Assembly (NCBI GenBank): GCA_016181935.1
Contig: JACOYI010000002.1
Span: 1 to 58,215 of the forward strand
Source: Candidatus Niyogibacteria bacterium
GTDB taxonomy: Bacteria > Patescibacteriota > Minisyncoccia > HO2-45-28
DNA length: 58,215 nt
Direction of reading: 5' to 3'
A program made the translations under genes and the position numbers. This document shows, piece after piece, positions 478-54,174 of the stretch. How positions within the stretch are numbered: position 1 is the first letter of the stretch; each line of letters starts with the position of its first letter. Below the pieces are notes generated by a model. It saw only the letters and a list, made by a program, of their open reading frames with translations. It was not told where the DNA came from and searched no databases.

Positions 478-905
478 CTATTCTGTGACTTTTCTCAACC
501 AATTCGTTGCATTCCATCCGCCTCCCGGGTATGGGATCACGCCCCAATCCGCCAAGCTGATGGATTCGTTTCGGAATCCCCTCTCGTCTTTCAAAAAAAC
601 TTTGATCCGTAGCGACCCATCCTTTTCATCCACATAAGGCGCCTGCACGACCCGTCGGACATCCGAACAAGGACATCCGAACAAATATCGCGCCTGCATA
701 TCATCACCGGCACACCGTACCGCAGCTGGTCAAGCGAACGAATCTGGCTCGGCCCGAAATCCGGGCGCTCGGAAACGATACCGGGATTTGTGAGTCGGGG
801 TTCATCGGTATGTACGATCTCCATCTTGATCAGCAACATCATCACCGCAAACACGATACCGGCGCCGGCACAGAAACCGGAAACGAGAAGTTTGGGAGGA
901 AACAT
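478..905 (-). pseudogene. Membrane-anchored hypothetical protein frameshifted by a 14-bp tandem duplication
   Basis: ORFs 591..905 and 478..699 join into one 137-aa frame if one copy of ggacatccgaacaa (657-670/671-684) is removed; SD-like GAGGTG before ATG 905. Confidence 0.7.
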
Positions 906-982
906 AGAGCACCTCTTTGGAATGATTTAGAAAACAAAATCCGCGTCCATTATGTGGCGAAGCGCGCTTTTCGTCAAGACAA

Positions 983-1038
983 AGGGAACCCAAAGGGTAG
1001 TCCTGCGGGTCAGAAAAGGACTACCCTTTGGGTTCCCT
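983..1038. repeat. REP-like palindrome, family P
   Basis: Perfect inverted repeat gggaacccaaagggtagtcct...aggactaccctttgggttccc after ftsZ. Confidence 0.85.
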
Positions 1039-1046
1039 CCCTTTCA

Positions 1047-2183
1047 TTACTTCTTCGAGCGGCGCAAAAAGGCGGGAACGGATTCCCAATCCTCGTTGTC
1101 TTTTGGAGCGACGCCCGATAATGATTCGGACGCCGAAACAGTTCCCGAATGCGGCGACGCTTTCGGCGGCCGCTCGCTTGAAAAAAGCTTTTTGATGCGT
1201 CCCTCCTCCGGAAAACCGGACGCGATGACGGTGATTTTGATCTCGTCTTTTTTCAGCGTTTCGTCATGGAACGCGCCAAAAATGACTTTCGCGTCTTTAT
1301 CGATGGATTCCGTGACCACGCGCGCCGCCTCCTGAATCTCCCACATGGTCATGTCTTCGCCGCCCGACACCGAGAAAAGAACGCCCCGCGCGCCGTCGAT
1401 CGAAAGATCCAGAAGCGGCGACGTAATGGCGAGCCGCGCGGCTTCTTCGGCGCGTTTCTCCCCCGTGGAACGCCCCACACCCATGAGCGCCGTCCCCGAA
1501 CCCTGCAACACGGCGCGCACATCGGAAAAATCCACATTCACGATGCCCGGATAGGTAATGAGGTCCGAGATGCCCTGCACGGCCTGACGCAACACTTCAT
1601 CGCACAACGCGAATGCCGAAATGAACGGCGTGTTTTTGTCGACGGCCGTGAGCAGACGGTCATTCGGAATGATGATCATCGCGTCCACATGATCCTTGAG
1701 ACGCATCAATCCGTCTTCCGCGATCTGCGTACGCTGTGCGCCTTCAAATGAAAACGGCTTTGTCACGACGCCCACGGTAAGAATGCCGGTGTCATGCGCG
1801 AGTTGCGCGACCACGGGCGCCGCACCCGTTCCCGTGCCGCCGCCGAATCCGCATGTGATAAAAATAAGATCCGCGCCTTTGAGTGATTCCTGAATTTCTG
1901 CTTTATTTTCGTCGGCCGCCTGTTTGCCGACTTCCGGATTCATCCCCGCGCCCAATCCCCGCGTCAAACTTTGGCCGATGTGGATCTTTTTCGGCATCAA
2001 ACTGTGATGCAGATCCTGCGCATCGGTATTGATGCCAATAAAATCAACGCCTTTTACTTTATTGCGGATCATGTGATCCACGGCGTTGAGCCCGGATCCG
2101 CCGACGCCGATCACTTTGATTCGCGCAAATGTTTCGATTTCCGGTTTAACTTGTGGCATAGATTCGCTCACACGAATGGTCAT
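1047..2183 (-). CDS. ftsZ: Cell division protein FtsZ
   Basis: IKVIGVGGSG, GGGTGTG tubulin signature, C-terminal VPAFLRR. Confidence 0.99.
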   Translation of the reverse strand: MTIRVSESMPQVKPEIETFARIKVIGVGGSGLNAVDHMIRNKVKGVDFIGINTDAQDLHHSLMPKKIHIGQSLTRGLGAGMNPEVGKQAADENKAEIQESLKGADLIFITCGFGGGTGTGAAPVVAQLAHDTGILTVGVVTKPFSFEGAQRTQIAEDGLMRLKDHVDAMIIIPNDRLLTAVDKNTPFISAFALCDEVLRQAVQGISDLITYPGIVNVDFSDVRAVLQGSGTALMGVGRSTGEKRAEEAARLAITSPLLDLSIDGARGVLFSVSGGEDMTMWEIQEAARVVTESIDKDAKVIFGAFHDETLKKDEIKITVIASGFPEEGRIKKLFSSERPPKASPHSGTVSASESLSGVAPKDNEDWESVPAFLRRSKK

Positions 2184-4465: not shown

Positions 4466-4990
4466 TTATATACCGGAGACAACAGGAAGCGCGCGTACTC
4501 TGCACAGTTTTTTCCATTCTTGCATGACGAGTTCGTTGATCGAATTTCCGAAGGGCGGCTTGTAAATCGTGATTCTATCCTCATCGGGAGTTGTCTGAAG
4601 TCCATCCCCATTCCGATGGCCAGGCGCATGTTGAATAATGATGAGCGCATCGGTACCCGCTTCAGTGCTCGGAAGAGCTCGACTCCCTGAATATGCAACT
4701 CCGTCGGGATAACAATAGAGCGCATCTACGAGCGCCTGCGTTCCTTCGAGCTGCACGGCATAAAGCCAATCTTTCCAACAATGATCCAGCTTCTCTACGT
4801 TATGCTGAAAAACTTTATGTTCTTCAGGATTCACGATTTGGAGGAGTGCTTCACGGTCAAGCCGCTTCACTTTAATGACTTGTGTTCCGCCGGTTCGCGT
4901 TCCGGTCCAATCCTGGAACACACCCCACAGATATGGAAACTCTCTCCAAAACGACCGATGCTTTCGCCACGAAGCGCTTGTTGAGAACAT
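4466..4990 (-). CDS. Hypothetical protein (accessory, inserted between rpsU and yqeY)
   Basis: Open frame; ATG 4990 preceded by GGGAG; promoter TTGATT-16-TACAAT at 5119-5092; hairpin ~4421-4455 downstream; start uncertain. Confidence 0.65.
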   Translation of the reverse strand: MFSTSASWRKHRSFWREFPYLWGVFQDWTGTRTGGTQVIKVKRLDREALLQIVNPEEHKVFQHNVEKLDHCWKDWLYAVQLEGTQALVDALYCYPDGVAYSGSRALPSTEAGTDALIIIQHAPGHRNGDGLQTTPDEDRITIYKPPFGNSINELVMQEWKKLCRVRALPVVSGI

Positions 4991-5140
4991 GCCTGATCTC
5001 CCATCTTTGACCGTCACGGTCTGGCACGGTACTTTTGCCACGGGCCGCGTGGCGCGGGGCCTTGGAAAAAATCCTTGGCCATCCACCTCGCATTGTAGTA
5101 GCTCAAAATGAAAAATCAAGCGCTTTTTTTGCTCGAAACC

Positions 5141-7820: not shown

Positions 7821-7870
7821 GGGCGTGCGGGTCCGTTGGCTCGCGCGCGCCTTTCGCGTAGAATACGCTT

Positions 7871-8422
7871 ATGAAAATCGTTCTGGGACTCGGGAATCCG
7901 GGGGCGGAATACGAAAAAACGCGCCATAACGCGGGTGCGCTGGCTCTGCAATACGCCGCGCGCAAGTTTGAATTTTCGGATTGGGCGGGCGCCAAAAAAT
8001 ACGAATCGCTCGCCGCGGAGGGAAAAATCGCGGGCGAAAAATTCCTGTTTCTGTTCCCGCAAACCTTTATGAACAATTCCGGAAAAACGGCGCGCGGCAT
8101 AAACCCCAAAAATCTCACGGTCGTTCACGATGACATGGATCTGGCGCTCGGCGTCATAAAAATCTCGTTCGGGCGCGGCTCGGGCGGACACAAAGGCGTG
8201 GAATCCATTATCCGCGCATTGAAATCGCGCGATTTCGCCCGCATCCGCATCGGCATCGCGCCCAAAGTAAAACCCGACCACAAAAAAATGCCGGACTTTC
8301 TCACCTCCCCCTTCCGCGCGGACGAACTCAAAAAATTATCGCCGGTTTTTAAAAAAGTTTCGGAAGCTCTCGAATGCATCGCCTCGGACGGCATTCCGCG
8401 CGCCATGAACCGGTTCAATTAA
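7871..8422 (+). CDS. pth: Peptidyl-tRNA hydrolase
   Basis: GLGNPG..Y..TRHNAG, FMNNSG, HDDMDL, GGHKG. Confidence 0.97.
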   Translation: MKIVLGLGNPGAEYEKTRHNAGALALQYAARKFEFSDWAGAKKYESLAAEGKIAGEKFLFLFPQTFMNNSGKTARGINPKNLTVVHDDMDLALGVIKISFGRGSGGHKGVESIIRALKSRDFARIRIGIAPKVKPDHKKMPDFLTSPFRADELKKLSPVFKKVSEALECIASDGIPRAMNRFN

Positions 8423-8435: not shown

Positions 8436-8816
8436 CTATCTCTTGGGAGAATGGTTTCGTACAACCGCTTCTACAGCAGAAAACAAAAACACGCCCATTA
8501 TAGCGCCTGACAAAAGAAGAAAATCGTAATCGGTCATCCAGCGATGACCCATCCAGTAAAGTACCCGTAATCCGACGCCGAACCCCACTAAAAATTTAGC
8601 TGAAGCGATACACAATTTCTTAAGAGTCTTTTTGTCTGACCAGCCGATTTTCAGCATCGCTGTAAAGGAGACGACAACGACAAGCGCCAAGCTCCACCCT
8701 AAATACTCAGGCAACGGAATGTGAATATAAAAGAACGTGGATGCGAAGGTGGCGCTCGCCATTGCTAAACACGAAAAAAGAAATACTTTTGTTTTTTGTA
8801 ATTCTTCAGCATTCAT
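8436..8816 (-). CDS. Hypothetical 4-TM membrane protein (accessory)
   Basis: Four hydrophobic segments; GGGAGG before ATG 8816; lower GC. Confidence 0.7.
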   Translation of the reverse strand: MNAEELQKTKVFLFSCLAMASATFASTFFYIHIPLPEYLGWSLALVVVVSFTAMLKIGWSDKKTLKKLCIASAKFLVGFGVGLRVLYWMGHRWMTDYDFLLLSGAIMGVFLFSAVEAVVRNHSPKR

Positions 8817-8851
8817 TGCGCCTCCCAATAGGACGCTGTTGAACTCCAACC

Positions 8852-8959: not shown

Positions 8960-9424
8960 TTAGAAGCGAGCCCGAAGACCAAGCGCATGGGCGCTCGAAT
9001 CAACGAACGAATACCACCGGACGTGTTCATAAAAAATCTCCAACACGTAGACTCCGAGCGCCGCGCCAAAAGTAATTTTCTGGGCGTTGTCCGACTGACG
9101 CTCCACTACGCCTTCGGAATTTTTGAAATTCCCCCGCATTGTCCCGATCCCCCATTCCGCATACCCATAAATAGATGGGATTCCATACCCGATCTGCGCT
9201 GTCAAAAATGCTCCTCGCATATCATCAACAGCATCAATATCGACACCGACATCAATCGCGGGAATGATCACGAACGGAGGAAGAATCGAAATGCCGGCGG
9301 AAAGGCCGACCCCTCCGTCAAGATAAGGCCCCACGGAAACGTATCGCGAGATTTCCGCTTTTGCGACCGTAGAAAAAAGAAAGAAAAGGAACGCAACGAA
9401 CGATATCCGTACGATTTTTGACAT
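8960..9424 (-). CDS. Putative small outer-membrane beta-barrel-like protein
   Basis: Signal peptide ending AKA, Gly/aromatic alternating strands, C-terminal ALGLRARF; GGGAG SD. Confidence 0.6.
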   Translation of the reverse strand: MSKIVRISFVAFLFFLFSTVAKAEISRYVSVGPYLDGGVGLSAGISILPPFVIIPAIDVGVDIDAVDDMRGAFLTAQIGYGIPSIYGYAEWGIGTMRGNFKNSEGVVERQSDNAQKITFGAALGVYVLEIFYEHVRWYSFVDSSAHALGLRARF

Positions 9425-9468
9425 CTATTCTCTCCCGCTGGTTGGTTGTAAAGATTCAACTCCACCTT

Positions 9469-12107: not shown

Positions 12108-13241
12108 TTACCCCTTTTTCTCCTCCCCCAGATACGCCAATGTCATCTTCTTCTCTTTCGGATTGAACAAGGTGATCTGGAACGGATACGTTTTGCCGAG
12201 TTCCACTTTTTCGCGCATGTCTTTTTCCGAGCCGAATTCCGAAATATGCACGAGTCCGGCCACGCCTTCCTCCGCGCTCACGAGCACCCCGTACCGATTG
12301 ATGCGGATGACCACGCCCTCCACAATATCCCCTTTCTTATATTTATCCTTGATTTTGTCCCACGGATCGGGTTCGAGCGCTTTGATGGAGAGCGAAATTT
12401 TGCCGTTCTCGATGGCGATGATCTTTGCTTTCGCGCGGTCGCCTACCTTAAACATCGTGCGCGGATCCTCCACCAGCGACCACGACAATTCCGAAATATG
12501 CGCCAATCCTTCGAGCCCTTCCTCCAATTTGATGAACACGCCAAAATCCACGACACCCGTGATGTCGCCTTCGATGGTGTCGCCAACCGCATATTTTGCG
12601 AGCACTTCTTTGACCTCATCGGTCTGGATCTCTTTTTCCGAGAAAATAAGTTTTTCCTCCGCTTGATTGGCCGTGATGATGGTGACCGCCAAGGTCTCGC
12701 CCACCAGTTTTTTCAATTCCTCCAAAATCTTTTCTTTGTCGCCGCCTTCCACGCGCGGGTAGTGGACCGAGCGCAGTTGCGATGCCGGAAGAAATCCCTG
12801 AATGCCTTCCCATTCGAGCACCAACCCGCCCTTGTTCGCTTCTTTTACCTTGATCAAAAGCGGCGTGCGTTTTTCCGCGAGCTCCTGCGCTTCGCGCCAA
12901 ACGATCTCCTGTCCCGCTTCCTTAAGCGAAAGTTCCGCATAGCCATCCTCGTTTTCAAGCTCGATGATTTTTGCGGTGATGCGGTCTCCGGCGCGGAGAT
13001 TGCGCGCCATGTCTTTGGCCTGTATCAATTCGCGGCCATACACGATCCCCGTACTCCAACCCAGATCGATGTAGAGCGCCGCCCCTTTGCGGCCGAGCAC
13101 CACGCCATCCACAAAATCGCCGGTCTTCGGAAACCCGGCAGGCGCCAGTTTGAATAACTGCTCCATCGCCGAAGGCGGCGGTCCGCCGGCTGGCGGATCG
13201 AGAACGGCATTTGAAGCTCCATTTTCCGTGGTTTGTTCCAT
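12108..13241 (-). CDS. rpsA: 30S ribosomal protein S1 (4 S1 domains)
   Basis: NKGGL, GFLPASQL, FGVFI..EGLAHISELSW; TTGCCA-16-TATAAT 7 nt before ATG 13241. Confidence 0.93.
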   Translation of the reverse strand: MEQTTENGASNAVLDPPAGGPPPSAMEQLFKLAPAGFPKTGDFVDGVVLGRKGAALYIDLGWSTGIVYGRELIQAKDMARNLRAGDRITAKIIELENEDGYAELSLKEAGQEIVWREAQELAEKRTPLLIKVKEANKGGLVLEWEGIQGFLPASQLRSVHYPRVEGGDKEKILEELKKLVGETLAVTIITANQAEEKLIFSEKEIQTDEVKEVLAKYAVGDTIEGDITGVVDFGVFIKLEEGLEGLAHISELSWSLVEDPRTMFKVGDRAKAKIIAIENGKISLSIKALEPDPWDKIKDKYKKGDIVEGVVIRINRYGVLVSAEEGVAGLVHISEFGSEKDMREKVELGKTYPFQITLFNPKEKKMTLAYLGEEKKG

Positions 13242-13303
13242 AGGGAGGATTATACCCGCAAAACAACGAATGGCAAGATTTTGGACGCTTCGCGTCCAAA
13301 ACA

Positions 13304-13332: not shown

Positions 13333-13394
13333 TGATTTTAACGCTGAATGGTCAGCGAGGAAGTTCTTTTCCAGCCAAAGCATAAGGAGAAGCG

Positions 13395-13763
13395 ATGAAA
13401 ACCATCCTAGTGTTCGTGGCGCTCATCGGATTCCTCTGGAGTTCGCTGGCGGGCGCGAATCCGTTCTGCATCTCTTGCGACATCAAGCTGGCCGGCCAGC
13501 CTGTCGAGGTCGCACCTCCGCAAGGGCCCATCACCCCGATCGATCCGTGCACCGTCACGAAATGTGGAGCCGATGCTAGCGCCCAGCAGTGTCAGCCCAT
13601 CGAAGGCGAGGTTTTGGAAAATCTCGTCTACCCGGACTGGGGGAAAACCCCCGCCGCTCCTGTCGGCCCGCCCACCGAGGTTGCGCCTCCCATGCGCTAC
13701 GCGCCCGGACCCATGCCTATTGAGGTTCCTTGTTGCCCCAAGAATCCCATGTACGACTTCTAG
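13395..13763 (+). CDS. Secreted Cys/Pro-rich hypothetical protein
   Basis: TAAGGAG SD, signal peptide, 7 Cys, EVAPP repeats. Confidence 0.7.
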   Translation: MKTILVFVALIGFLWSSLAGANPFCISCDIKLAGQPVEVAPPQGPITPIDPCTVTKCGADASAQQCQPIEGEVLENLVYPDWGKTPAAPVGPPTEVAPPMRYAPGPMPIEVPCCPKNPMYDF

Positions 13764-13909: not shown

Positions 13910-14137
13910 TCATTGAAACGGTTCTTCCAGTACGTCGAGCTCTTCATACGGACTCGAGACCCGAACCTTCTGTCGTCGCCGAACGAACTGATCCGGAAGT
14001 TGCTGGATAAGGCCGCCGCGCGCTTTGTAAACCCGAATGGCCTTGCTTACTTCGTCGTGGGTCACGGACACCTTCTTCGGCCCCGGCTTCCCGTTCTTTT
14101 CGCGCTTCCGGCTTGGATTGAACGATGTCGTTTTCAT
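13910..14137 (-). CDS. Small basic protein, possibly SutA-like RNA-polymerase-binding
   Basis: AGGAGG SD, TTGACA-16-TATGCT promoter (14197-14170), motif SKAIRVYKARGGLIQQLP. Confidence 0.6.
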   Translation of the reverse strand: MKTTSFNPSRKREKNGKPGPKKVSVTHDEVSKAIRVYKARGGLIQQLPDQFVRRRQKVRVSSPYEELDVLEEPFQ

Positions 14138-14258
14138 ACCCCCTCCTGTTTCTTGAAAATCTGCTCTTGAGCATAGACCGATTCATATATTTGTCAATCT
14201 CCTGATGCTTTTTTCGGGATTTTCGGGGGTTGATTTTCGACCCAAAATCAGCTAAGCT

Positions 14259-17649: not shown

Positions 17650-17859
17650 AAAGCGCGAAGTAAGATCTTTGAGAGCGAATTGCGGAGAAGTTCTGAAAAT
17701 GAAAGAGTTTTGAAGCGAAATTAGCGGTCGGAAAATCCCGACCGGAGCAAAGCGCAGGGAGGGAGGAACGGGAACCGCGTTAAGATTTCGCGCACAAAAC
17801 GACTATCATTTTCGAGCTTCGAAGCACCTTCGCGGCGCAAAGATCTTACGAAGCGCTTT
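17650..17859. repeat. 210-bp long bulged hairpin (MITE or structured RNA)
   Basis: Successive paired blocks aaagcgc/gcgcttt, gtaagatctttg/caaagatcttac, gaaaatga/tcattttc, gttttg/caaaac, gcgaaat/atttcgc. Confidence 0.7.
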
Positions 17860-37263: not shown

Positions 37264-37264
37264 A

Positions 37265-37974: not shown

Positions 37975-37977
37975 AGG

Positions 37978-38805: not shown

Positions 38806-38806
38806 A

Positions 38807-39241: not shown

Positions 39242-39250
39242 AAATTGATG

Positions 39251-39895: not shown

Positions 39896-39901
39896 ATGTT
39901 C

Positions 39902-40058
39902 ATGAATGACAAAATCAATTTCAGAGTACATTCAAATATCCAGCGGTATTTGAATTCCGTCCTCGGCGTTTTGCTTTTTGGTTCGCTTCGCGAAAGTATA
40001 ACCAAAAAGCGCCATGCAAAACGCCTGCGGAGCCTCTAAAATTGATTTTGTCATTCAT
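39902..40058. mobile_element. MITE-like structured element, family B copy 3
   Basis: TIR atgaatgacaaaatcaattt/aaattgattttgtcattcat; contains the rplC TGA stop. Confidence 0.8.
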
Positions 40059-40681
40059 ATTATTTTCCGAATTTCAACCAGCGTATCGCGGCGGCCCGGA
40101 ATAGCGCCCGAAACCGCGACCAGATTTTTTTCGGCGTCCGCAAAAACGATCTCGAGATTGCGCACCGTCACGCGCTCGCCCCCCATCCGGCCGGCCATGC
40201 GCATTCCTTTCGCGACCCGCCCGCCGGCTCTGCCGCCCCCTCCGATCGAACCCGCCTCGCGTTCCGAATGTTTTTGTCCATGGGTTCGCGAACCGCCATG
40301 AAATCCATGACGCTTTACGACGCCTTGAAATCCCTTGCCTTTTGAAATCGCGCTGACCTTCACTTTATCGCCGGTATTAAAAACGGAGGCGGTGATGGCG
40401 TCTCCGACATTGAAATCCGAGGGATTCGAAACCCGAAATTCGCGCACCCAGCGGAACGACGCATCGGGAATCGCTTTCCATTGGCCGCGGACCGGCTTCG
40501 GAATGCGCTTCGGATTCTTCCGGCCGAACCCCACCTGAACCGCATCATAACCGTCTTTCTCGGCCGTCTTCACCTGCGTCACGATCATCGGTCCCGATTC
40601 CACAAGAGTAACCGGCCGGACAATGCCCGCCTTCGTGAAAAACTGCGTCATATTCACTTTTTTGCCGAGAATGAATGCCAT
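40055..40681 (-). CDS. rplC: 50S ribosomal protein L3
   Basis: [20 protein letters not shown]. Confidence 0.98.
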
Positions 40682-40743
40682 AGTGTTTCAACAAAAAACC
40701 CCGGCCTCGCGGGATCTTCTGCAAAAAACCCGTCCCTTATTAC

Positions 40744-41112
40744 TTACATCATTTTAACTTCAATGTCCACTCCCGCCGGCAAATTAAGGTTGGTGAGCGC
40801 ATCAATGATCTTTGCCGTCGGATTTAAGATATCAATCAGCCGTTTATGCACGCGCATTTCGAATTGCTCCCGCGCATTCTTGTGAACGAAGGTGGAACGG
40901 TTGACGGTATATTTGCGGATCTCGGTCGGCAATGGTACGGGGCCGGTTATCTCCGCTCCGTAGCGCAATGACGTATCCACGATCTGGCGGACCGATGCGT
41001 CCAAGATCTTATGATCATATCCGCGCACGCGGATGCGCAAGTGTTGCCGCTCCTCCTTCAGTTCCTTTACTTTTTTCGCTCGGGATTCTTGAGCTTTCGC
41101 TTTGACAGCCAC
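40744..41112 (-). CDS. rpsJ: 30S ribosomal protein S10
   Basis: [22 protein letters not shown]. Confidence 0.97.
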
Positions 41113-43487: not shown

Positions 43488-43958
43488 TTAACGAGCTCCA
43501 CCCTCCAGAAGCGGGGCGGCGTCTGCATTATCCGCCGGCTTATCGGATGCGCGGGGAGCCACCATAGTCACAACGTATGTCGTCATTCGCGCCTTCTCCA
43601 CCGTCACGCGTCCGCCTCCCGCGTTCTGTTCCTCAAGGATCCCTTCCGAAACATAGTCCCCTTCTTCGCGAACGAATCTGCATGTTTGCGACAGCATCAT
43701 CAACGGAAACGCACCGGCAATGCCCTGCTGTTCCGCTTGTTCCTCTTCGGACAAAGGCCGCTGGGAAGAAATGTCTTTCAGCGTCAGCAGCCGATGAAAA
43801 CCTTCGGAAGCCAAGCGTGCGGCATCCAGCGACTTGCACGCAAGTTTGATAGATTCCGTTCCTGCCGGAACGGATTCCTTGGATTCTTCTGCTCCGACCG
43901 CGAATGCGGGGAATGCGAACGCGACAAGCGCGAGCGCGATTGCGAAAAATCGGGTCAT
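43488..43958 (-). CDS. Secreted hypothetical protein (2 Cys)
   Basis: GAGGAG SD; signal MTRFFAIALALVAFAFPAFA. Confidence 0.75.
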   Translation of the reverse strand: MTRFFAIALALVAFAFPAFAVGAEESKESVPAGTESIKLACKSLDAARLASEGFHRLLTLKDISSQRPLSEEEQAEQQGIAGAFPLMMLSQTCRFVREEGDYVSEGILEEQNAGGGRVTVEKARMTTYVVTMVAPRASDKPADNADAAPLLEGGAR

Positions 43959-44034
43959 ACTCGTCTCCTCTGGGTTTAAAGATGCACTACTGGTCCAAAG
44001 CAAATTTATCAAGAACTGAAGTTAAAGTAAAGAA

Positions 44035-44081: not shown

Positions 44082-44570
44082 TCACTGCCACGCGCCTTGC
44101 GGGATTTCGTTGGGCGGTTTTGCCGGATCCGGCGGCACGATCGCGCCGGGCGGTTCAACCTCATGCGCTTCCTCCTCTTTGATGAGCGGCTTGAGCGCGG
44201 CGGGCGTTGCAATCACCCACACGGTCACGATGAAATCCTCGCCGCCCATGGCTTCGAGAATCATGAGATTGTAATCCAGACGTTCAACGACCCACTTCGG
44301 AACATACTGCTTGCCGCCCCGACACTTGTGGAACGTGAATTTTGAGGCTATAATGTCAACCGCCGCTTCCATCTCCTTTTCTGTCTTTTCGTCTCGCCTC
44401 GTTACCAATATCGCTTTGGCGAATTCCTGCGCGTCTTCTTTCGACACGCACGCCACCCCGCCCGTTGTCGGCGTGCCGATGAATTTCTGGAAGTCAAGTT
44501 CTTCCTCGGCGAACGCCGGAGCAGCCAGGGTCGCGAAAAGGACCGCGAATATTCCGAATGCGTATTTCAC
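44082..44570 (-). CDS. Secreted hypothetical protein (2 Cys)
   Basis: GGGAGG SD before GTG; signal ending APAFA. Confidence 0.75.
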   Translation of the reverse strand: MKYAFGIFAVLFATLAAPAFAEEELDFQKFIGTPTTGGVACVSKEDAQEFAKAILVTRRDEKTEKEMEAAVDIIASKFTFHKCRGGKQYVPKWVVERLDYNLMILEAMGGEDFIVTVWVIATPAALKPLIKEEEAHEVEPPGAIVPPDPAKPPNEIPQGAWQ

Positions 44571-44661
44571 ACTTCCGCCTCCCTATCGAGGTTTACTGCG
44601 ATTTACTGCGCCCGTTTCTTCAAAATACTGAGCATAAGATTATCGTAATGATTCAAACCTG

Positions 44662-46020
44662 TCAATGCCCGTGGATAACCGCGCCGATCTCTTTGATCTT
44701 CTCCTCCAATCGCTCGCGGGTATCTGCTTCGACTACAAGCCGCAGGAGCGGCTCGGTTTTCGAGGGCCGCGCCGCAAACCACCAGCCCGTCCCGAGTACC
44801 CCCGAGGGGTCGTCATATTCAACCATTAAGCCGTCAAGAAACGACTGGCGGCCGTCGGCATATTTTTCGCGGAGCCGCCCGATGGCGCCGGCATCCGCCT
44901 CAAAACTCAACTCACCCGAATGAAAATACTTTTCATACGGCCGAAGTAATTCGGAAAATGGCTTTTCGGAGCCTGAAACGATGTTCAATACATGCATGAG
45001 CGTTAAGAGCGCCGAATCGAATCCGTGAAATTCGCGCCAATAATAATGGCCGGACAGCTCCCCGCCGATGCGCGCGCCGGTCTTACGCATCGCGGCTTTG
45101 ATGTGCGGATGACCGACGGAAACGGTCTTGAGCACGATACCCTTTTCTTTCGCGATATCCCGAAGAATACGCGAACCAAAAACCGTCGAAACAGCGCTCT
45201 CCCCCCGCACCGCACAATGGTCCAATAAAAATGCGTAAAGCGTCGTTCCGAGGATCATGCGTCCCTGCTCATCCAAAAACAGGATGCGGTCGCCATCGGC
45301 ATCCATGATGAACCCGAAGTCGGCGCGCGTTCGTCGAACCGCCTCCCGTGCGGCGCTTTGCGCGTCCGGACGCAAAGGATTGGGCGAATGATTTGGAAAC
45401 CTGCCGTCAGGCTTGAAAAACAATGTTTCAGCTTCAATGCCAAGCCGCCCGAACAACCGCTCGAGTAAAAATCCGCCCGAACCATTCGACGCATCCGCAA
45501 CCACGCGAAGCGGGCGCCGTAGCGCGGACAACGAAATCAAAAAATCAATGTAATCATCCGAAAAATCCGCGGCCAATATCGCCCCCTCGCTCGCGGCGCG
45601 CGCCATCGGAAAACGGCTTAACGCCTCGATTTTCGGCAAACTATTTTCTTTGTAAATCGGCTCCCCTTCGGGCCCCACGAGTTTTACGCCGTTCCATTCG
45701 GCGGGATTATGCGAAGCCGTGATCATGGCGCCTCCCGCCGCATCCGATTCCGCCACGGAAAAATAAAAAAGCGGCGATGTCACAAGACCGATGTCGCGTA
45801 TGTCAAATCCCTCGGCTAAAACGCCCCGCTCGAATGCGCGAAGCAATGCTTCGGACGATAATCGCGCATCGCATCCGGCAATGACCTTGCCCCGACCCCC
45901 TTTTTCGGCAAGATACCTCGCAAATGCGGAACCAATGCGTTCCGCGACCGCCTCATCCAAGTCCTCCGGAACCCGGCCGCGGATATCGTAGTCCTTGAAA
46001 ATCGAAGTTGAATTCCCCAT
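44662..46020 (-). CDS. Phosphomannomutase/phosphoglucomutase
   Basis: FKDYDIRG, TASHNP, DADGDR, GELSGH, RPSKTEP. Confidence 0.96.
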   Translation of the reverse strand: MGNSTSIFKDYDIRGRVPEDLDEAVAERIGSAFARYLAEKGGRGKVIAGCDARLSSEALLRAFERGVLAEGFDIRDIGLVTSPLFYFSVAESDAAGGAMITASHNPAEWNGVKLVGPEGEPIYKENSLPKIEALSRFPMARAASEGAILAADFSDDYIDFLISLSALRRPLRVVADASNGSGGFLLERLFGRLGIEAETLFFKPDGRFPNHSPNPLRPDAQSAAREAVRRTRADFGFIMDADGDRILFLDEQGRMILGTTLYAFLLDHCAVRGESAVSTVFGSRILRDIAKEKGIVLKTVSVGHPHIKAAMRKTGARIGGELSGHYYWREFHGFDSALLTLMHVLNIVSGSEKPFSELLRPYEKYFHSGELSFEADAGAIGRLREKYADGRQSFLDGLMVEYDDPSGVLGTGWWFAARPSKTEPLLRLVVEADTRERLEEKIKEIGAVIHGH

Positions 46021-46046
46021 GAGCGTATGATAGGGTAATTTCACTT

Positions 46047-47161: not shown

Positions 47162-47240
47162 CTTGCAATTTTAAACTATATGTTATAAAATCCATCTAGA
47201 ATCAGGTGGGTAGAAGAAAAAAACTAAGAGGAGGCTTGCC

Positions 47241-47450
47241 ATGAAAAATCCGCTTGAAAAGATATGGTCGCGATATGATCGCGCCCCCGAGTTGCTGCGG
47301 CTTCTCATTTGTCTTGCCGTAATCGTCCCTTGGCTAATAGCAACGAACACAGGGAAAGGGAGTGTGTTTTTGTTTGTTGCCAGTTCTATCGCTCTTCTCC
47401 TTGTTCTGTTGAGCCGCATGTGGCATTTGCATGCGAATGCCCGGCTTTAA
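47241..47450 (+). CDS. Small 2-TM hypothetical protein (accessory)
   Basis: GAGGAGG SD, TTGCAA-17-TAAAAT promoter. Confidence 0.65.
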   Translation: MKNPLEKIWSRYDRAPELLRLLICLAVIVPWLIATNTGKGSVFLFVASSIALLLVLLSRMWHLHANARL

Positions 47451-47462
47451 TCGGTCGGGTTT

Positions 47463-48864: not shown

Positions 48865-51048
48865 TCAAAACGATTCGAAAAAGTTTTTGTCCTCTTTTTT
48901 TGCCGTTTCCTTCGGGATCGCGGGAGCCGGTTCGTCCGCTTTTAAGAGAACTTCACGGGGTTTGGCGCCGTCTCCGGGACCGATCACGCCTCTTGCCTCA
49001 AGAATATCCAAGAGACGGGCCGCGCGCGCATAGCCGATCCGCAGACGCCGTTGGAGATAGGATGCCGATGCCTTGCCGACCTGTATGATGATGTCTTTAG
49101 CTTGGTCGTACAGTTCGTCCTCCGCATTATCGTCGCCATCGCCATCGAACATGGTCCCGCTTTCCCGTTCCGGTTCCAAATTAAAACTTTCCGTTTCCGC
49201 GGCTTCGTAGGTATTTTCCAGATATTGCGCGACCTTGCGTACTTCCGATTCGGAAACGAACGCTCCTTGAATGCGGCGGGGTTTTGCGGAATCGCCCGAC
49301 ATGAACAACATATCGCCCTTGCCCAAAAGTTTTTCGGCGCCCGCCATATCGAGGATCGTGCGCGAATCCACTTGCGACGCCACTTGGAATGCAATGCGGC
49401 TCGTGATGTTCGCTTTGATGAGTCCGGTGATGACCTCAACCGACGGGCGCTGGGTGGAGAGCACCAAATGGATGCCGACCGCCCGCGACATCTGCGCCAG
49501 ACGCACCACGGCCGCTTCCATTTCTCTAGGATACGCCGTCATGATGTCGGCGAGTTCGTCTATCACGATGACGATATAGGGCATCGGTTCCTCGGCCGAT
49601 ACCGCCATTGCGTGGTAGGAACCGATATCGCGCGCTTTGTGCTTTGCAAGACATTCGTAGCGGCGCTCCATTTCGCGCGACGCCCACTTGAGCGCCACGA
49701 TCGCTTTTTTCGGATCGGTAATAACGGAAGTTAAATTATGCGGGATGCCGGAATAGACGGAAAGCTCCACACGCTTGGGATCGATCATCAAGAAGCGCAG
49801 GCGCTCCGGCGGATTGCGGTACAGAAGCGCCATCATCATCACATGGATCGCGACGGATTTACCCGAGCCCGTGGAGCCCGCGATCAGGAGATGCGGCATT
49901 TTTTCAAGCACCGCGTAGGTCGCGCGGCCCGACACGTCGCGGCCGAGAGAGAGCGCCAATTCGCCTTTTGTCTCTTTGAAGTCGTCTGATGCAAGCATGC
50001 TTCGCATGCCAACGAGCGCGATCGAACGGTTCGGGATCTCGATGCCGACGAGCGATTTCCCCGGTATCGGCGCTTCGATGCGGATGGGATGGGCTGCCAA
50101 CGCCAGCGCCAAGTCATTATGCAATCCCGTTATCTTCGAGAGCTTCACGCCCTCAGCCGGCCGCATGGTGTACTGGGTGATGGACGGTCCGATATTCACT
50201 TCGGCCATTTCCACCAAGATCCCGAAATTTTGGAGCGTTCGCTTGATGATATTCGCATTCGCCTTGATATCGCCGGAATTGGGACGGCCTTTGTTGTCTT
50301 CGAGCAGGTCCAGCGGCGGCGGCCGGAATGCGACCACAGGACGCGCCCTTCTTGGCGCCATCAATGTCCCGTCTTCGTTCATTTCCTCGCTCGTCGCTTC
50401 CAGTGCCGGCTCCGGCATTTGGGTCGCGCCCGCTTCCTCTGCTTTCTTTTCGCGCGTCAATTCGCTTTTGATGGCGTCGAATGCGGCTTTGAATTTTTCC
50501 GCCGTTGTCGCATCCGCGCCTTCGCCCTCCGCCGCTTCGTCTTTTTTACCGAACGGCCACCGGAACTTGAGCGAAATATTCATCATCAACAGGACCGCAA
50601 CCGCGAACATCGCTGCCAAAATCACGAGCGACGCCCAGAAATCGAACAAATTCAAAAGCGGCCGCGACAATAATCCGCCGATGACGCCAGCGCCCTCCTC
50701 TCCGCCCAAAATATCGAACCCCGCAAGCGCGGAGACGAGCATTAAAATACCGCCGGACACGGTCGAGGACACCCATTGGGTTTTAAGCGATAAAAGAAAT
50801 GAGACGCCCGCCGCCGCAAATGTGACGGGCACCAGAAAGAACGCCCGCCCGAACAATGTTTCAAAAAGCCCGAGCAAACGCTCGCCCATAACCCCCGCCT
50901 TGCCGAATGCCGAGAGCACCAAAAGCGCGGCGACCGCGAAGGATGCGATGGCGAAAATGGATTGCTTGGTCTCGGGGTTCATCCGCGACCACGCATTCCC
51001 CTCCTCCGCCTCCTCTTTTTTGGACGGCCTGCCGCGTTTTTTAGCCAT
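48865..51048 (-). CDS. ftsK: DNA translocase FtsK/SpoIIIE
   Basis: N-terminal TMs, PHLLIAGSTGSGKS, DELAD, LQRRLRIGYARAARL. Confidence 0.98.
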   Translation of the reverse strand: MAKKRGRPSKKEEAEEGNAWSRMNPETKQSIFAIASFAVAALLVLSAFGKAGVMGERLLGLFETLFGRAFFLVPVTFAAAGVSFLLSLKTQWVSSTVSGGILMLVSALAGFDILGGEEGAGVIGGLLSRPLLNLFDFWASLVILAAMFAVAVLLMMNISLKFRWPFGKKDEAAEGEGADATTAEKFKAAFDAIKSELTREKKAEEAGATQMPEPALEATSEEMNEDGTLMAPRRARPVVAFRPPPLDLLEDNKGRPNSGDIKANANIIKRTLQNFGILVEMAEVNIGPSITQYTMRPAEGVKLSKITGLHNDLALALAAHPIRIEAPIPGKSLVGIEIPNRSIALVGMRSMLASDDFKETKGELALSLGRDVSGRATYAVLEKMPHLLIAGSTGSGKSVAIHVMMMALLYRNPPERLRFLMIDPKRVELSVYSGIPHNLTSVITDPKKAIVALKWASREMERRYECLAKHKARDIGSYHAMAVSAEEPMPYIVIVIDELADIMTAYPREMEAAVVRLAQMSRAVGIHLVLSTQRPSVEVITGLIKANITSRIAFQVASQVDSRTILDMAGAEKLLGKGDMLFMSGDSAKPRRIQGAFVSESEVRKVAQYLENTYEAAETESFNLEPERESGTMFDGDGDDNAEDELYDQAKDIIIQVGKASASYLQRRLRIGYARAARLLDILEARGVIGPGDGAKPREVLLKADEPAPAIPKETAKKEDKNFFESF

Positions 51049-51115
51049 GGGTATAGTATAGGAAGCTTCCCCCCAAAAGAAAAACGGCGGCGCCAAGAGG
51101 CATCGCCGTTATCCG

Positions 51116-52321
51116 CTATTTCTGCTTCTGCCTAATGATCTCTTTCGCTTTTTCCAGTACTTCATCTTCGGGCGTTGCGGGGTCGTCCGCGATCTCGACA
51201 TCGGGCGTGATGCCGACGCCTTCGGGCGATGTGCCCCCGCCGATGAAATAATGACGGGTCGTCAGCCAGAGCATGCCCCCGTCCGCGAGCGCCTTTGCCG
51301 CCTGCATACTGCCTTTCCCGAACGTCTTTTTGCCGATCACGGTATGGCCCCAGTATTGCAAACCGCCGGAAACCACCTCGGAAGCGGACGCCGAATGTTC
51401 GTTCACCAGAACCACGATGGTCCAGTCCGCATAGGGTCCGCGGCCGCCGGCCTCGTATCGCTGGTCGGCAACGTCGTGCCGATCGCGCGATTCGAACAGC
51501 AATGCGCCTTTCTGGGGCGCGAACACCGCAAGAAACTGGACCGCGACATGCACGAAACCCCCCGGATTATCCCGAAGGTCGAGGACGAGCGTATGGAGTC
51601 CTTTTTGGCTGAAATCCTTGAACGGTTGCTTGAGGTCATCGCCGATGAGATTCGCTTTATCGAACGAAAAAAGCTTGAGGTAGACGATACCGTTCCCGAG
51701 TTCCCGTATTTCAACGGATGGTACCTTGACCACGCCGCGCACGATCGCGAACAGCGGGAGTTTTTGGCCATCGCGAAGGATTTCAAGATAGACCGTGCTC
51801 CCGTCCGGACCCGTGATGCGGTCGACCACATCGGCCATCGGAAGACCGGCGAGCGACTCCATCGCGTCCGGTTTGACGCCCGATGCCGTGATGATGTCGC
51901 CCTTGCGGGGCGCGCCGGCTTTTTCCGCCGGACCGCCGGCAATCACTTCCACAACCAAAACACCTTCGCTTACGGACCCGATCTGCACACCGATCCCCGT
52001 AAAACTGCCGGCCGATCGCCTCTCGAATTCCCTCTGCGATTCATACCGCATGTATTTGTCTTTCGGAAAACAGCTCTCGAGCGTGATGTCTGCTTTGAGC
52101 TCGCCCTTCTCGAGTTCGAAACGGGTGAATGCGCGGCCCAGCATGCAGGCGGAAAAATCCCTCATCTCTTTCGGCGTCGGGCCGTAATAGGATTCCTGTT
52201 CCACGGTCGTCATGAGATCGGTGAACGCCTGAATGCCGTCATCGCTCGCCGACTCTGCGGCACATGCCGGAACCGTGAACATCGCGAACACAAGCGCCGC
52301 AAAAACGATTCTTCGCCGCAT
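51116..52321 (-). CDS. S41 (CtpA-like) carboxyl-terminal protease with PDZ
   Basis: LDLRDNPGG, SASASE, TFGKGS; signal peptide; AAGGA SD. Confidence 0.92.
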   Translation of the reverse strand: MRRRIVFAALVFAMFTVPACAAESASDDGIQAFTDLMTTVEQESYYGPTPKEMRDFSACMLGRAFTRFELEKGELKADITLESCFPKDKYMRYESQREFERRSAGSFTGIGVQIGSVSEGVLVVEVIAGGPAEKAGAPRKGDIITASGVKPDAMESLAGLPMADVVDRITGPDGSTVYLEILRDGQKLPLFAIVRGVVKVPSVEIRELGNGIVYLKLFSFDKANLIGDDLKQPFKDFSQKGLHTLVLDLRDNPGGFVHVAVQFLAVFAPQKGALLFESRDRHDVADQRYEAGGRGPYADWTIVVLVNEHSASASEVVSGGLQYWGHTVIGKKTFGKGSMQAAKALADGGMLWLTTRHYFIGGGTSPEGVGITPDVEIADDPATPEDEVLEKAKEIIRQKQK

Positions 52322-52427
52322 AAAATTTCCTTTCAAAAAACAACCGCGTTCAATCTAAAAATACGCCCGCCGCTTAGAATGTCAACGAAAAGAAAAACGG
52401 CGGCCTCGTAAGAAGCCGCCGCACGTC

Positions 52428-53459
52428 CTAATCCTGCGGGATGTAGGGCTCGAGGCGAACGTCGAACTCAAGCGATTGATCGCCGCGACGCGCGCTCAAA
52501 TGAACAGAGTCGTTCGGCTTGAGCGTGAGCGCCAATTCCACAAAAAATTCCTTCATCGTGGCAAACGGAATCGGTTGCCCGTCGTGCGACATCTCAACGA
52601 TGATATCCCCCGCCTTGATCCCAACCCGCGCCGCCGGAGAGCCGTCAAATACCTTTGTCACGAGTACACCGGACTTTTCATTCGGAGGATAGGTGCGATT
52701 CGCAATGAACTGGTAGAGATCCGGATGAATGCCATTGATACTCTCGATCTTCATCCCCATGGTCCCGTGATACACGACGCCGCGCTGGGAAAGCATCTGT
52801 ATTGCCAACCGCTCGATATACTGGACCGCGAGCGAGTGGCTCTGGAGGCCCTGCGGCGTTTGCAGGGTGTTCATTCCAACAACAACCACCTCTCCGGAAT
52901 CCCGAACCGTAAACAGGGGGCCGCCGGAATTCCCCGGGTGCACTGGCGACTGGTTCGCGAACATGAACGGGGAAAATGGTGATTCGGGCGCATTGATCTC
53001 ACCCTTTGCCACGCTCCGAACCCCAAAAGGCCAACCGACTCCGTACACCATCTGGCCAACCACGATATCCGACTCATTCCCCAGAGAAGCTGAAGCGGCG
53101 TCCGGCGGCAAGGGCGACGGGCACTCGAGAAGCGCCACGTCCATCACCGGATCATTTCCGAGAATGCCAACCTGCCGCCCGTCCTTTTCGGATTCGAATC
53201 GCACCCACATTTTTTGCTGAAGCACCGGCCCAACCACATGACTGTTTGTGAAAATGAAACACCCACGCTCCGGATTCTGGTAGAAAAAGCCGCTTCCTCG
53301 GCCAAAATTTTGTGATCCTGTCCCAGATTGCTGGGAGCTGTACACTTCAACGAGATACGGGAGCGGCTGATAGAATTTCACCATGTGGTTGTCGATCCCC
53401 GCCTCGACTGAAAACGCGGCTGCAACCAGCGCGAGAAGAGTAAGTCCCCATCGTTTCAT
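52428..53459 (-). CDS. HtrA/DegP-like serine protease with PDZ
   Basis: GSGF, TNSHVV, DVAL, PGNSGGPL; signal peptide; AAGGAG SD. Confidence 0.92.
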   Translation of the reverse strand: MKRWGLTLLALVAAAFSVEAGIDNHMVKFYQPLPYLVEVYSSQQSGTGSQNFGRGSGFFYQNPERGCFIFTNSHVVGPVLQQKMWVRFESEKDGRQVGILGNDPVMDVALLECPSPLPPDAASASLGNESDIVVGQMVYGVGWPFGVRSVAKGEINAPESPFSPFMFANQSPVHPGNSGGPLFTVRDSGEVVVVGMNTLQTPQGLQSHSLAVQYIERLAIQMLSQRGVVYHGTMGMKIESINGIHPDLYQFIANRTYPPNEKSGVLVTKVFDGSPAARVGIKAGDIIVEMSHDGQPIPFATMKEFFVELALTLKPNDSVHLSARRGDQSLEFDVRLEPYIPQD

Positions 53460-53577
53460 GACGTTCTCCTTGTGATTGTGAGGAACTTCGTATCTAGGGC
53501 AAGCGTATACCGCCCTTGGACGAAGTCAAGCCAAATAGGAAAACGGCTAAGCGGGATTTCCCGTTTAGCCGTTTGGA

Positions 53578-54174
53578 TTACTGCGCCGGCGATTCGGCGG
53601 GCTTCATGCCCGCGACCGTGAACTCGCGCGTGGCGAGCGGCACGTCTCCCGCATCGTTGTAAATCGTGAAGCGGATGCGATTGTTGAAGGGCGCGACGGA
53701 AAGAACCTCGATGCCAAAAGTGTCCCCTAGGTAGATGTCGCCATCCGCAAAAGCGAAATACCACTGCTCGCCGATCTTCCATGCGTATATGACCACGTCC
53801 CTGCTTTCGAGCAGAGTGAACGTTACCGCTTTGTCTTTTTCGTCGCCGCTCGCCCAAATCGTCGTTTCGCCCCAATGGACCTCGGAATTGATAACGAATC
53901 CGTCCTCGCTCGGGTTTTCGTAAACGGCGGTCTGCCTATCACTAAGCAAAGCCGTCATCCGCGACGTGTCCGGCCGCGCGGCGGGCGTGAGGACATACGG
54001 CTTTTCCGCGGCCGCCTCGACATTCACTTGCCCCAGTATCGAATCGTAAAAGAAGGGGTCTGTGAGATCGTAGAAGTTTGGATCAGGATCGTGGGGTGTA
54101 AAAGCGAGCCCGAAACCAGCGAACGCTATGGACGCGAACAAAACCGCGACCATCAAACTCAATTTCTTGAACAT
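53578..54174 (-). CDS. Secreted hypothetical protein
   Basis: AGGAG SD; signal MFKKLSLMVAVLFASIAFA; terminator ~53541-53575. Confidence 0.75.
   Translation of the reverse strand: MFKKLSLMVAVLFASIAFAGFGLAFTPHDPDPNFYDLTDPFFYDSILGQVNVEAAAEKPYVLTPAARPDTSRMTALLSDRQTAVYENPSEDGFVINSEVHWGETTIWASGDEKDKAVTFTLLESRDVVIYAWKIGEQWYFAFADGDIYLGDTFGIEVLSVAPFNNRIRFTIYNDAGDVPLATREFTVAGMKPAESPAQ

Follow-up and report, generated by a model that had tools for sequence, protein, structure and literature searches.

The window analysed here is a stretch of 58,215 nucleotides (nt) from a genome labelled Candidatus Niyogibacteria (G000; positions 1-58215 of contig C3, i.e. G000:C3:1-58215), in which twelve genes led by a Shine-Dalgarno (SD) site stand among core genes that start without one. 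The original prediction had taken these twelve genes for a distinct class, built to be read in another way than the core. The class as such is real and extends through the entire genome, while the two roles that had been attached to it, translation in a host cell and an exported regulon, found little support. The genes of G000 fall into two tiers, an SD-less conserved core and a flexible set in which canonical SD sites are frequent, and the same two tiers recur in the related genome G004. The known 16S tails of the family end without CCUCC, the composition of the SD-led genes is that of the resident genome, and their SD sites are conserved within the genus. On these grounds we lean, with no great confidence, towards a two-tier mode of translation initiation, in which a lineage with a degenerate anti-SD retains canonical SD sites by selection on its flexible genome.

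According to this proposal, the anti-SD of a Parcubacteria-type lineage would have degenerated from CACCUCCU to (U/C)AUUUACU. The first tier, the conserved core, would be started without SD, either on leaderless transcripts with the first T of the -10 box at -12 or behind A+T-rich leaders, and its operon-internal genes would likewise be SD-less. The second tier would comprise flexible, lineage-specific genes that are leadered and have a canonical AAAGGAG(G) located 4-8 nt upstream of the start codon. There, the SD element would be under purifying selection and might serve as a signal for start choice, ribosome loading or translation control in the own cell; it would be read by something that carries CCUCC or recognises GGAG, and not by the known tail, to which it has no complementarity. 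That the element acts in translation at all is an inference.

Genome-wide distribution of SD sites and leaderless starts

SD sites of five or more bases precede 159 of 710 genes in G000, and 29 of 710 genes carry such a motif in the decoy window at -50..-31 (decoy rate 4%). They are found in 40/440 core genes but in 119/270 flexible genes (odds ratio 0.13, p 5e-27), and the split between core and accessory genes that had been noticed in the window (SD-led calls in 4/59 core and 9/15 flexible genes there) is thus upheld genome-wide as a roughly five-fold difference in frequency. Core means here a reciprocal best BLASTP hit in G004 and flexible or accessory means every other gene, a division that is cruder than a curated annotation. 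A scarcity of SD-preceded genes is a feature of the G000 core, it does not apply to the genome overall. The motifs are also well positioned: the starts of GGAG, GAGG or AGGA peak at -11..-8 (54, 52, 38 and 31 of 719 genes, compared with ~4-13 per position elsewhere), and the upstream windows hold AAGGAG 40 times and AGGAGA 28 times versus 10.5 and 4.5 times in control windows. The SD frequency rises from the family core (40/440) over genes restricted to the genus (56/145) to unique genes (63/125), and it reaches 46-67% among flexible genes with an upstream gap of more than 25 nt. Inside operons (gap of at most 25 nt), an SD was found for 8/143 core genes, close to the decoy value of 29/710. 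The picture in G004 is the same, with the peak of the SD core motif at -14..-10 and the -10 box at -12, AGGAGG in 43 upstream windows where 3.5 were expected, and SD sites in 38/440 core versus 124/369 flexible genes. Hence, canonical SD sites are present on 34-44% of the flexible genes of G004 and G000, respectively.

G000 comprises 742,029 bases in 14 contigs with a G+C content of 50-58% and a completeness of 100% by marker genes. It was placed in family f1 and genus g1; G001 (analysed portion of 683 kb in 85 contigs) belongs to the same genus, while G002, G004 and G008 belong to the same family. G004 is a one-contig genome of 836,981 bases, of which 800,000 bases were analysed. The best named homologues of two G000 proteins carry the labels Candidatus Niyogibacteria and other Patescibacteria. 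The window contains no tRNA gene, and none of its sequence matches an Rfam family at the gathering score. Genes were called with an own simple caller, which uses a dicodon log-odds model trained on G000 itself and a greedy choice of open reading frames (ORFs), resulting in 720-729 genes that cover ~84-86% of the sequence. Three rules for the start were applied, namely the longest ORF, the best coding score, and a coding score that was raised when an SD or a -10 box was present; besides the decoy window, motif-blind starts and genes with a single possible start served as controls.

An artefact of gene or start calling, i.e. an SD-favouring start picker or spurious ORFs, could be suspected since the caller rewards motifs and either overlooked or placed the start elsewhere in four of the 12 flagged genes (591-905, 4466-4990, 8436-8816 and 47241-47450). 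However, the positional peak persists with longest-ORF and coding-score starts, and the decoy rate is low. The difference between the classes is likewise retained with motif-blind starts (28/440 core, 93/270 flexible) and among genes with a single possible start (7/87 core, 20/46 flexible), and it is also seen in genes of at least 200 amino acids (aa; 28/280 core, 56/128 flexible). Moreover, spurious ORFs would dilute the enrichment rather than create it. We give such an artefact next to no credence.

The core genes have a start signature of their own. The motif TAnnnT is found with its 5' T exactly at -12 in 50-56 genes of G000 compared with ~6-20 genes at other positions, and a match to TATAAT in five of six bases occurs at -12 in 29-33 genes compared with 0-8 elsewhere. 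With the own start picker, 73 genes carry a five-of-six -10 box at -13..-11 (decoy, 8). A -10 box with its first T at -12 represents the classic geometry of leaderless transcripts. Non-SD genes show this sharp peak close to the start. In the SD-led genes no -10 box lies in the last 30 nt before it, which marks them as leadered, and A+T is less abundant in their upstream regions than in those of other genes. Several unrelated genes throughout the genome have the block AAATTTATTTAYTCRCTAACRYTCGTAYAAATTTGGC in common directly before their ATG, for example upstream of 5406 and 48815, which we regard as a putative leaderless promoter cassette that is reused. The hexamer TAAATT is enriched (15 vs 1.5).

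The 3' end of the 16S rRNA

The anti-SD state of the lineage was read from relatives. The 16S search covered 31 genomes (G000 and 30 relatives), of which 21 gave a match; the 3' end could be read at 11 of the 12 loci returned, L002 being not orientable. Among these 11 ends, four contain CACCUCC and terminate in GGAUCACCUCCUUUC, while seven lack it. The family members G002, G008 and G004 all (3/3) end in GGAUUAUUUACU without CCUCC, the 16S gene of G004 being single-copy, and no CCTCC occurs anywhere in the 16S of G002 and G008. The nearest 16S sequence available, the metagenome contig L172, differs from the G000 fragment on contig C11 at 2 of ~95 positions; it reads ...GGUCGUGGAACAUUUACUGAAAUC at its 3' side and ends in GGAACAUUUACU, again without CCUCC. 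In other families of the class (L007, L009, L010 and L011) the tails GACUAUUUCAUUUUU, GGAUCAAUUCCAAUUU, GGAUUUUUAAACU and GGAGUUUCAAUUU were observed, all different from CCUCC. The anti-SD seems to have degenerated in several ways, or may have drifted on after one loss. A relocation of the anti-SD to another part of the 16S was considered and rejected, as no conserved candidate was found and L006 and L008 are devoid of any CCTCC. Likewise, a 3' exon carrying the anti-SD behind an intron could be dismissed for G004, where no CCTCC in a plausible context was found within 5 kb downstream.

The situation in G000 itself is complicated by its assembly. A search with RF00177 returned no 16S in G000. 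BLAST located the 3' part of the gene at the beginning of contig C11, interrupted by an intron and seemingly devoid of helix 45. The sequence of C11 runs from the intron into helix 44 and, after AAGTCGTAA, directly into spacer sequence. The first part of this contig (C11:1-700, L153) carries an insertion of ~500 nt in the 16S at a position equivalent to ~1400, the same site at which G004 has an intron with a LAGLIDADG ORF. Among the contigs of four groundwater runs, two records that meet at C11 ~636-644 have just 9 nt in common, and no record spans the junction. Hence, two GGCACG repeats were mis-joined during assembly and helix 45 together with the 3' tail was dropped; the apparent deletion of helix 45 is not a biological one and says nothing about the tail. 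The original prediction had suggested that the anti-SD be looked for at the 16S 3' end, which gave a clear result for the family relatives and L172, all without CCUCC, and a gap at the place where the own tail of G000 is missing from the assembly.

The ribosomal protein uL1 gives additional information. Its family (PF00687) had no match in G000, whereas all 14 control genomes were matched. According to Tsurumaki et al. 2022 (PMC9297842), only 48% of Parcubacteria possess the anti-SD motif, and its absence overlaps with the group that lacks uL1. Taking the relatives as a guide, the organism of the window very probably has a degenerate 16S tail.

Two further features were noticed downstream of the 16S gene. 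A hairpin located 50-100 nt after the 16S (GTGTTGGYCTCGGAGC...TTGAGRCC...GGGACAAAA; L153:690-760, L001, L006, L008, L010, L011, L012 and L172) is conserved across the class, with and without anti-SD, and its stem pairs CCUC with GAGG; it may be an rRNA processing element. Right after the rRNA spacer follows a gene for a ~50-aa four-cysteine zinc-ribbon protein behind a TATACT/TATAAT box (L153:806-962 and L172), the position of which is conserved in G000, G001, G002 and L172.

Composition and conservation of the SD-led genes

Composition and conservation both contradict the conservative explanation offered initially, a recent horizontal transfer that left relic SD sites behind. In their G+C content at third codon positions (GC3), SD-led flexible genes match the core in G000 (0.653 vs 0.647, p 0.88) and nearly so in G004 (0.460 vs 0.469, p 0.04, a small difference), and this parity holds in two genomes that lie 19 points apart. 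The SD-led genes are spread over 13 of the 14 contigs and include only 2 paralogous pairs.

The comparison of G000 with G001 is based on 504 reciprocal best hits with a median amino acid identity of 81%. In these pairs, an SD is present in both genomes in 62 cases, in G000 only in 24, in G001 only in 30 and in neither in 388 (odds ratio 33, p 1.5e-36). At 4-fold sites, the core reaches an identity of 0.59 and the genus-only SD genes one of 0.67, and a neutral simulation at 0.59-0.67 leaves 15-20 of 86 SDs, with a maximum of 29 in 300 runs, compared with the 62/86 that are observed. Among pairs with aligned starts, the SD is kept in 46/58, and 38 of these lie within 1 nt of the same position. 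The motif is identical at 0.76 of positions between the two genomes, while 0.50-0.60 is reached further upstream and at the same positions of non-SD genes. The sites are conserved and not decaying. Neither of the two outcomes named beforehand as refuting the original prediction, a similar SD frequency in both classes or a decay of the sites, was observed. Purifying selection on the element would imply that it works in the cell in which it resides and is no leftover of a transfer.

The window itself provides examples. The 198-aa exported protein encoded at 53578-54174 has homologues in G001 (43% identity) and G002 (34%, E 2e-21), which are all SD-led; the genes of this family in G000, G001 and G002 are preceded by TAGGAGAAACGCC, AAAGGAGAAAGTC and GAAGGAGTAAAAA, and G002 has a 16S without anti-SD. 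In the slot between ftsK and fusA of G002, 3/3 genes are SD-led. The HtrA-type gene of the window retains its SD in the G001 orthologue, and the CtpA gene is missing from the syntenic slot of G001.

Alternative explanations

Several observations weigh against selected SD sites in a lineage with a degenerate tail and have to be set beside this evidence. First, helix 45 and the tail of the G000 16S are absent from the assembly, and the degeneracy was derived from relatives. Second, genes and starts come from our own simple caller, with the core defined by reciprocal best hits to one relative. Third, the spacer between motif and start is as conserved as the motif itself (0.64-0.79), and selection may hence act on the whole initiation region. 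Fourth, the SD is kept in only 14/40 cases between G000 and G004 (chance ~3.5) and in 3/10 between G008 and G004, G008 being a partial genome; in the latter comparison, made in a genus that demonstrably has no anti-SD (205 kb of G008, 66% identical), an SD was found in both genomes 3 times, in one only 7 and 8 times and in neither 105 times (p 0.046), which is a small sample. Fifth, the tails of the relatives pair with the SD regions at a mean of -1.6 to -2.4 kcal/mol, weaker than shuffled tails and decoys, while a canonical tail would give -10 to -11 kcal/mol. Sixth, the motif of genus g1 extends as AAAGGAGGT(G), the complement of the canonical tail, with T at +1 in 29-38% of cases versus 15-18% background; this extension fits an intact anti-SD or one that was recently lost.

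The last point, in particular, would be compatible with an ordinary mixed genome, in which genus g1 keeps a canonical anti-SD with a 16S ending in CACCUCCUUU, the SDs are read normally, and many first genes of operons are leaderless as known from Actinobacteria or Deinococcus. The unassembled G000 tail, with its joint of two GGCACG repeats that no unitig bridges, leaves room for this explanation, and purifying selection on the SD within the genus would be expected from it as well. However, L172 as nearest 16S ends in GGAACAUUUACU, all three family relatives lack CCUCC, and uL1 is absent. Furthermore, the SD frequency of operon-internal core genes stays near the decoy, unlike in SD-using genomes that are rich in leaderless genes, and the same two tiers exist in G004, whose single 16S has no anti-SD. 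We regard an ordinary mixed genome as quite improbable.

A second possibility is that flexible genes circulate among Patescibacteria, about half of which possess an anti-SD, that the SD is selected in these hosts, and that it is carried along unused into lineages without an anti-SD, a high turnover keeping the frequency up. The concentration of SD sites in genes without family-level orthologues would agree with such hitch-hiking. The same is true for the turnover of the SD status at family distance and for the 4-fold identity, which is higher for genus-only SD genes than for the core. The SD-led adenylosuccinate lyase is 57% identical to its best homologue labelled with the same genus, and its named best hits, all from Patescibacteria, show 52-58% identity; these matches point to a phylum-internal gene pool rather than to foreign donors. 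A three-gene PrkA-type operon with an SD before each gene exists in G000 (C4:58715-63659) and in G004 (734961-740156), and the encoded proteins are 22-32% identical. Such values, found for several apparent orthologues with an SD in both genomes, suggest separate acquisitions, and together with the lyase a replacement of genes. On the other hand, the GC3 equals that of the resident core in the two genomes mentioned above, the genes are scattered over nearly all contigs with almost no paralogy, and syntenic G001 orthologues keep the SD in 62/86 cases where neutrality would allow at most 29. Hitch-hiking of unused SD sites therefore appears unlikely to us, and selection on the SD sites of the flexible genome remains the explanation that we prefer.

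Search for a reader of the SD

If the SD sites are selected, something should read them. A co-evolved SD that is complementary to the new tail can be rejected, because pairing with the real tails is, for both gene classes, no stronger than with shuffled tails or in decoy windows. Wobble pairing of AGGAGGUG with CAUUUACU is too weak, reaching -2.8 kcal/mol versus -16.1 kcal/mol for the canonical tail. CsrA is no candidate either, since PF02599 has no match in G000. The motif is flanked by AAA upstream, and in G004 the downstream side is merely A-rich.

One element attracted attention in this search. A hairpin of 110-125 nt, a candidate RNA, occurs in 1-4 copies per genome (3 in G000, 3-4 in G001, 4 in G004). 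One copy lies in the window at 17690..17815 (-) and displays an invariant anti-SD-like CGTTCCTCC; the other G000 copies are found at C9:55660-55767 (+) and C4:50142-50268 (-). Its basal stem consists of 23 pairs, 3 of them covarying, with one pair being U-A, G-C and C-G in three genomes. In the apical region CGUUCCUCC is invariant, and CGTTCCTCC is invariant in 10 aligned copies beside a variable segment. The element had no Rfam match. Either a small RNA or a miniature inverted-repeat transposable element could account for it.

A trans-acting CU-rich hairpin RNA of this kind might pair through its invariant GUUCCUCC with GGAGG, either as repressor or as anti-SD in trans. The covarying stem, the invariance of CGTTCCTCC, the multiple copies and the absence from Rfam would suit this function, and 8/10 aligned copies are co-directional with both flanking genes. 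Its distribution does not: a covariance model detected it in 8/31 genomes, all of family f1, and it was found neither in G002, which has no anti-SD and SD-led genes, nor in other anti-SD-less families. In addition, the bases after GGAGG do not match the loop complement AAC (C at +3 = 7% in G004), and terminal inverted repeats together with the same state in all copies of a genome would also fit a miniature transposable element. Since flank preferences and distribution do not support it, we dismissed the hairpin as SD reader and consider this explanation very improbable. The more general idea that the flexible genome is served by a second initiation channel for which the rRNA tail is not needed, with the candidate hairpin RNA carrying GUUCCUCC or a GGAG-binding protein as reader in trans, is a tentative one and in our view rather unlikely.

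Functions of the SD-led genes

Exported proteins are conspicuously frequent in the SD class within the window, and the original prediction had assumed an enrichment of diderm-type exported proteins. Genome-wide, the defining property of the class is that its members are flexible genes, not that they are exported. Of the flexible genes of G000 whose products have only an N-terminal signal-like segment, 28/48 are SD-led, compared with 91/222 of the other flexible genes (odds ratio 2.0, p 0.037), a weak association that is not significant in G004 (17/42 vs 107/327). The signal-peptide calls follow a simple hydrophobicity rule and not SignalP. A signal-peptide-like N-terminus is present on at least seven of the flagged products, in line with the classical signal peptides that had been noted. 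The diderm character did not stand, because Omp85/BamA (PF01103) and LpxC (PF03331) have no match in G000 while diderm control genomes were matched. With such a weak link to export, a host-interaction or exported regulon is not supported.

From outside the window, 20 SD-led flexible proteins were drawn randomly. Twelve gave a Pfam match, mostly to cytoplasmic enzymes and parts of ABC transporters: glyoxalase, NUDIX, Glu/Leu dehydrogenase type, HD nucleotidase, adenylosuccinate lyase and histidine phosphatase are among them, as are an ABC permease, an ABC ATPase, two DUF5317 membrane proteins, a secreted nuclease and a weak VWA match. IscU and thymidylate kinase also belong to the SD-led class. 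These findings bear on the suggestion that SD-led cassettes are delivered to a Gram-negative host and translated there by canonical ribosomes. A lineage ribosome that appears to have no anti-SD, a motif complementary to the canonical tail and some classical signal peptides could be cited for it. The class nevertheless includes cytoplasmic, housekeeping-type functions of the cell itself, among them the iron-sulfur scaffold, nucleotide and ABC-transporter proteins listed above, its export enrichment is weak or absent, and its codon composition does not differ from the resident one. We regard translation in a host as extremely improbable.

SD-led and core genes of the window

All twelve SD sites that had been listed for the window are present, each with an AGGAG-type motif 4-8 nt before the start, which is ATG in 11 cases and GTG in one. 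On the reverse strand, a small membrane protein of 104 aa is encoded at 591..915 (ATG 905, GAGGT 911-915), followed by a 174-aa protein without Pfam family at 4466..5002 (ATG 4990, GGGAG 4998-5002). The next two reverse-strand cassettes are adjacent: 8436..8826 encodes a 126-aa protein without Pfam family (GGGAG(G) 8822-8826), and 8960..9436 a 154-aa protein with signal peptide, strand-rich sequence and C-terminal Phe (GGGAG 9432-9436). They share a near-identical upstream segment, ATTTTAGGGAAAATAGCGTAAAGTGC, at 8886-8830 and 9494-9440 (-). The two encoded proteins show 22% identity, and the arrangement resembles a local duplication in which the promoter region was retained. The 154-aa protein (8960-9424) had been described as beta-barrel-like. 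Its sequence is of alternating strand-like type, just 2 further homologue clusters were found, and the structure model, calculated from a 4-sequence alignment, has a predicted local distance difference test score (pLDDT) of 49.8; a beta-barrel nature is at present an impression.

On the forward strand, 13384..13763 encodes a 122-aa protein with signal peptide (TAAGGAG, with AAGGA(G) at 13384-13388; ATG 13395), and on the opposite strand 13910..14147 a 75-aa basic protein (AGGAGG 14142-14147). The designation of the latter as SutA-like is a weak lead at most, since it has no Pfam match at E 0.01 and a single atlas lead with a weak feature score of 0.80, a value that shuffled proteins attain a third of the time. 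Two proteins with signal peptide follow on the reverse strand, one of 156 aa at 43488..43970 (GAGGA(G) 43966-43970), which is syntenic in G001 and ends before a terminator-like hairpin at 43481-43460, and one of 162 aa at 44082..44583 with the GTG start (GGGAG(G) 44579-44583). The forward cassette 47163..47460 is complete, with a promoter-like TTGCAA-17-TAAAAT at 47163-47191, an SD (AGGAGG 47229-47234), an ORF for a 69-aa membrane protein at 47241-47450 and a terminator-like hairpin at 47439-47460.

The last three genes are again on the reverse strand. The CtpA and HtrA identities are borne out by Pfam, with 51116-52321 as S41 peptidase with PDZ and 52428-53459 as trypsin-like peptidase with PDZ. 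The CtpA-type unit (51116..52385) starts at ATG 52321 with AAGGA at 52328-52332 behind a promoter-like TTGACA-16-TATTTT at 52385-52358. The HtrA-type unit (52397..53471) has AAGGAG at 53467-53472 and a strong terminator-like hairpin at 52422-52397. Finally, the gene of the 198-aa protein with signal peptide (53578..54246) has AGGAG at 54182-54186 and a promoter-like site at 54246-54218. A Pfam scan of 10 flagged products left 8 without any family.

The claim that most of these genes possess their own promoter and terminator was confirmed weakly at best. In the region 43000-54500, 29 terminator-like hairpins were found versus 17.5 (sd 3.8) in shuffled sequence, with strong ones right after 52428, 43488 and 47450. 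Promoter-like sites show no excess (6 vs 6.2 in shuffles); three of the six are located 30-45 nt upstream of flagged starts, namely 52385-52358, 54246-54218 and 47163-47191.

The core genes named for the window, S1, Pth, signal peptidase S26, GT2, PGM/PMM, FtsK, FtsZ, S6 and SSB, were confirmed by Pfam. Six of them have a TAnnnT hexamer close to the start, at -12..-7 (pth, GT2, pmm and ftsK), -13..-8 (rpsA) or -14..-9 (lepB). Leaderless-type core genes are pth at 7859..8422 (+; TAGAAT at -12..-7), rpsA for S1 at 12108..13254 (-; TATAAT at -13..-8), the GT2 glycosyltransferase gene at 28108..28863 (-; TAGAAT at -12..-7), the PGM/PMM gene at 44662..46032 (-; TATCAT at -12..-7) and ftsK at 48865..51060 (-; TATACT at -12..-7). 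The ribosomal-protein gene cluster with its neighbours (28901..41112, -) is an example of the SD-independent core: 23 genes were called there, and 21 have no SD of five or more bases. Among the 21, 20 are without any SD-like motif, and 32445-32888 has just a GGAG 3 nt before the start. The exceptions are 30064-30702 with GGGAG and 35054-35368 with GAGGT, the 5-mer lying 11 nt before the start.

Comparison with known systems and implications

Loss of the anti-SD and low use of SD sites are described for Parcubacteria and other Patescibacteria by Tsurumaki et al. 2022 (PMC9297842) and Estrada et al., where binding was scored to the own tail of each organism. The present lineage resembles such anti-SD-less Parcubacteria in the tails of its relatives without CCUCC, the absence of uL1, the SD-less core and the lack of upstream complementarity to the tail. 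It differs from them by canonical SD sites on a large part of its flexible genes, which are conserved within the genus.

A fixed short distance between a -10 box and many first genes, beside genes that are SD-led, is also a property of mixed genomes. Those of GeneMarkS-2 'group C', attributed to the work of Lomsadze and colleagues from 2018, are said to mix leaderless transcription with SD sites. They have, however, an anti-SD and SD sites in operon-internal genes, while the internal core genes are almost free of them here (8/143) and the lineage is without anti-SD. The genomes of Bacteroidetes/Flavobacteria are SD-poor with a sequestered anti-SD, and a few SD-led genes are served by ribosomes from which bS21 is missing. 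In both cases most genes do without an SD, and those that bear one form a minority that may be controlled separately. The Bacteroidetes have an unaltered anti-SD that is hidden, while the relatives of G000 have a mutated one, and the SD class of the present lineage corresponds to the flexible genome and to ~20% of the genes. Finally, horizontally acquired genes with donor signals are similar in being lineage-specific and patchy, as seen by the CtpA gene that is absent from the G001 slot. Unlike those, the SD-led genes studied here have a host-like GC3, are scattered and not clustered in islands, and conserve their SD above the neutral level.

The loss of the anti-SD in a subgroup of Parcubacteria and the existence of genomes that mix leaderless and SD-led genes are already in print. 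The full text of open PMC papers and bioRxiv yielded no account of a selected retention of SD sites in anti-SD-less Patescibacteria. When genomes of the candidate phyla radiation (CPR) are annotated with just one model of the ribosome-binding site, the start codons of one gene class or the other will be misplaced. If the SD sites are carried by gene flow, they would be a measurable marker for the turnover of the flexible genome in these symbionts. If they are functional, textbook pairing with the 16S tail cannot be their reader, and these organisms would represent a natural test of the SD without its partner. In that case, a second channel of initiation could set the expression of newly acquired or niche-specific genes apart from that of the leaderless and SD-less core.

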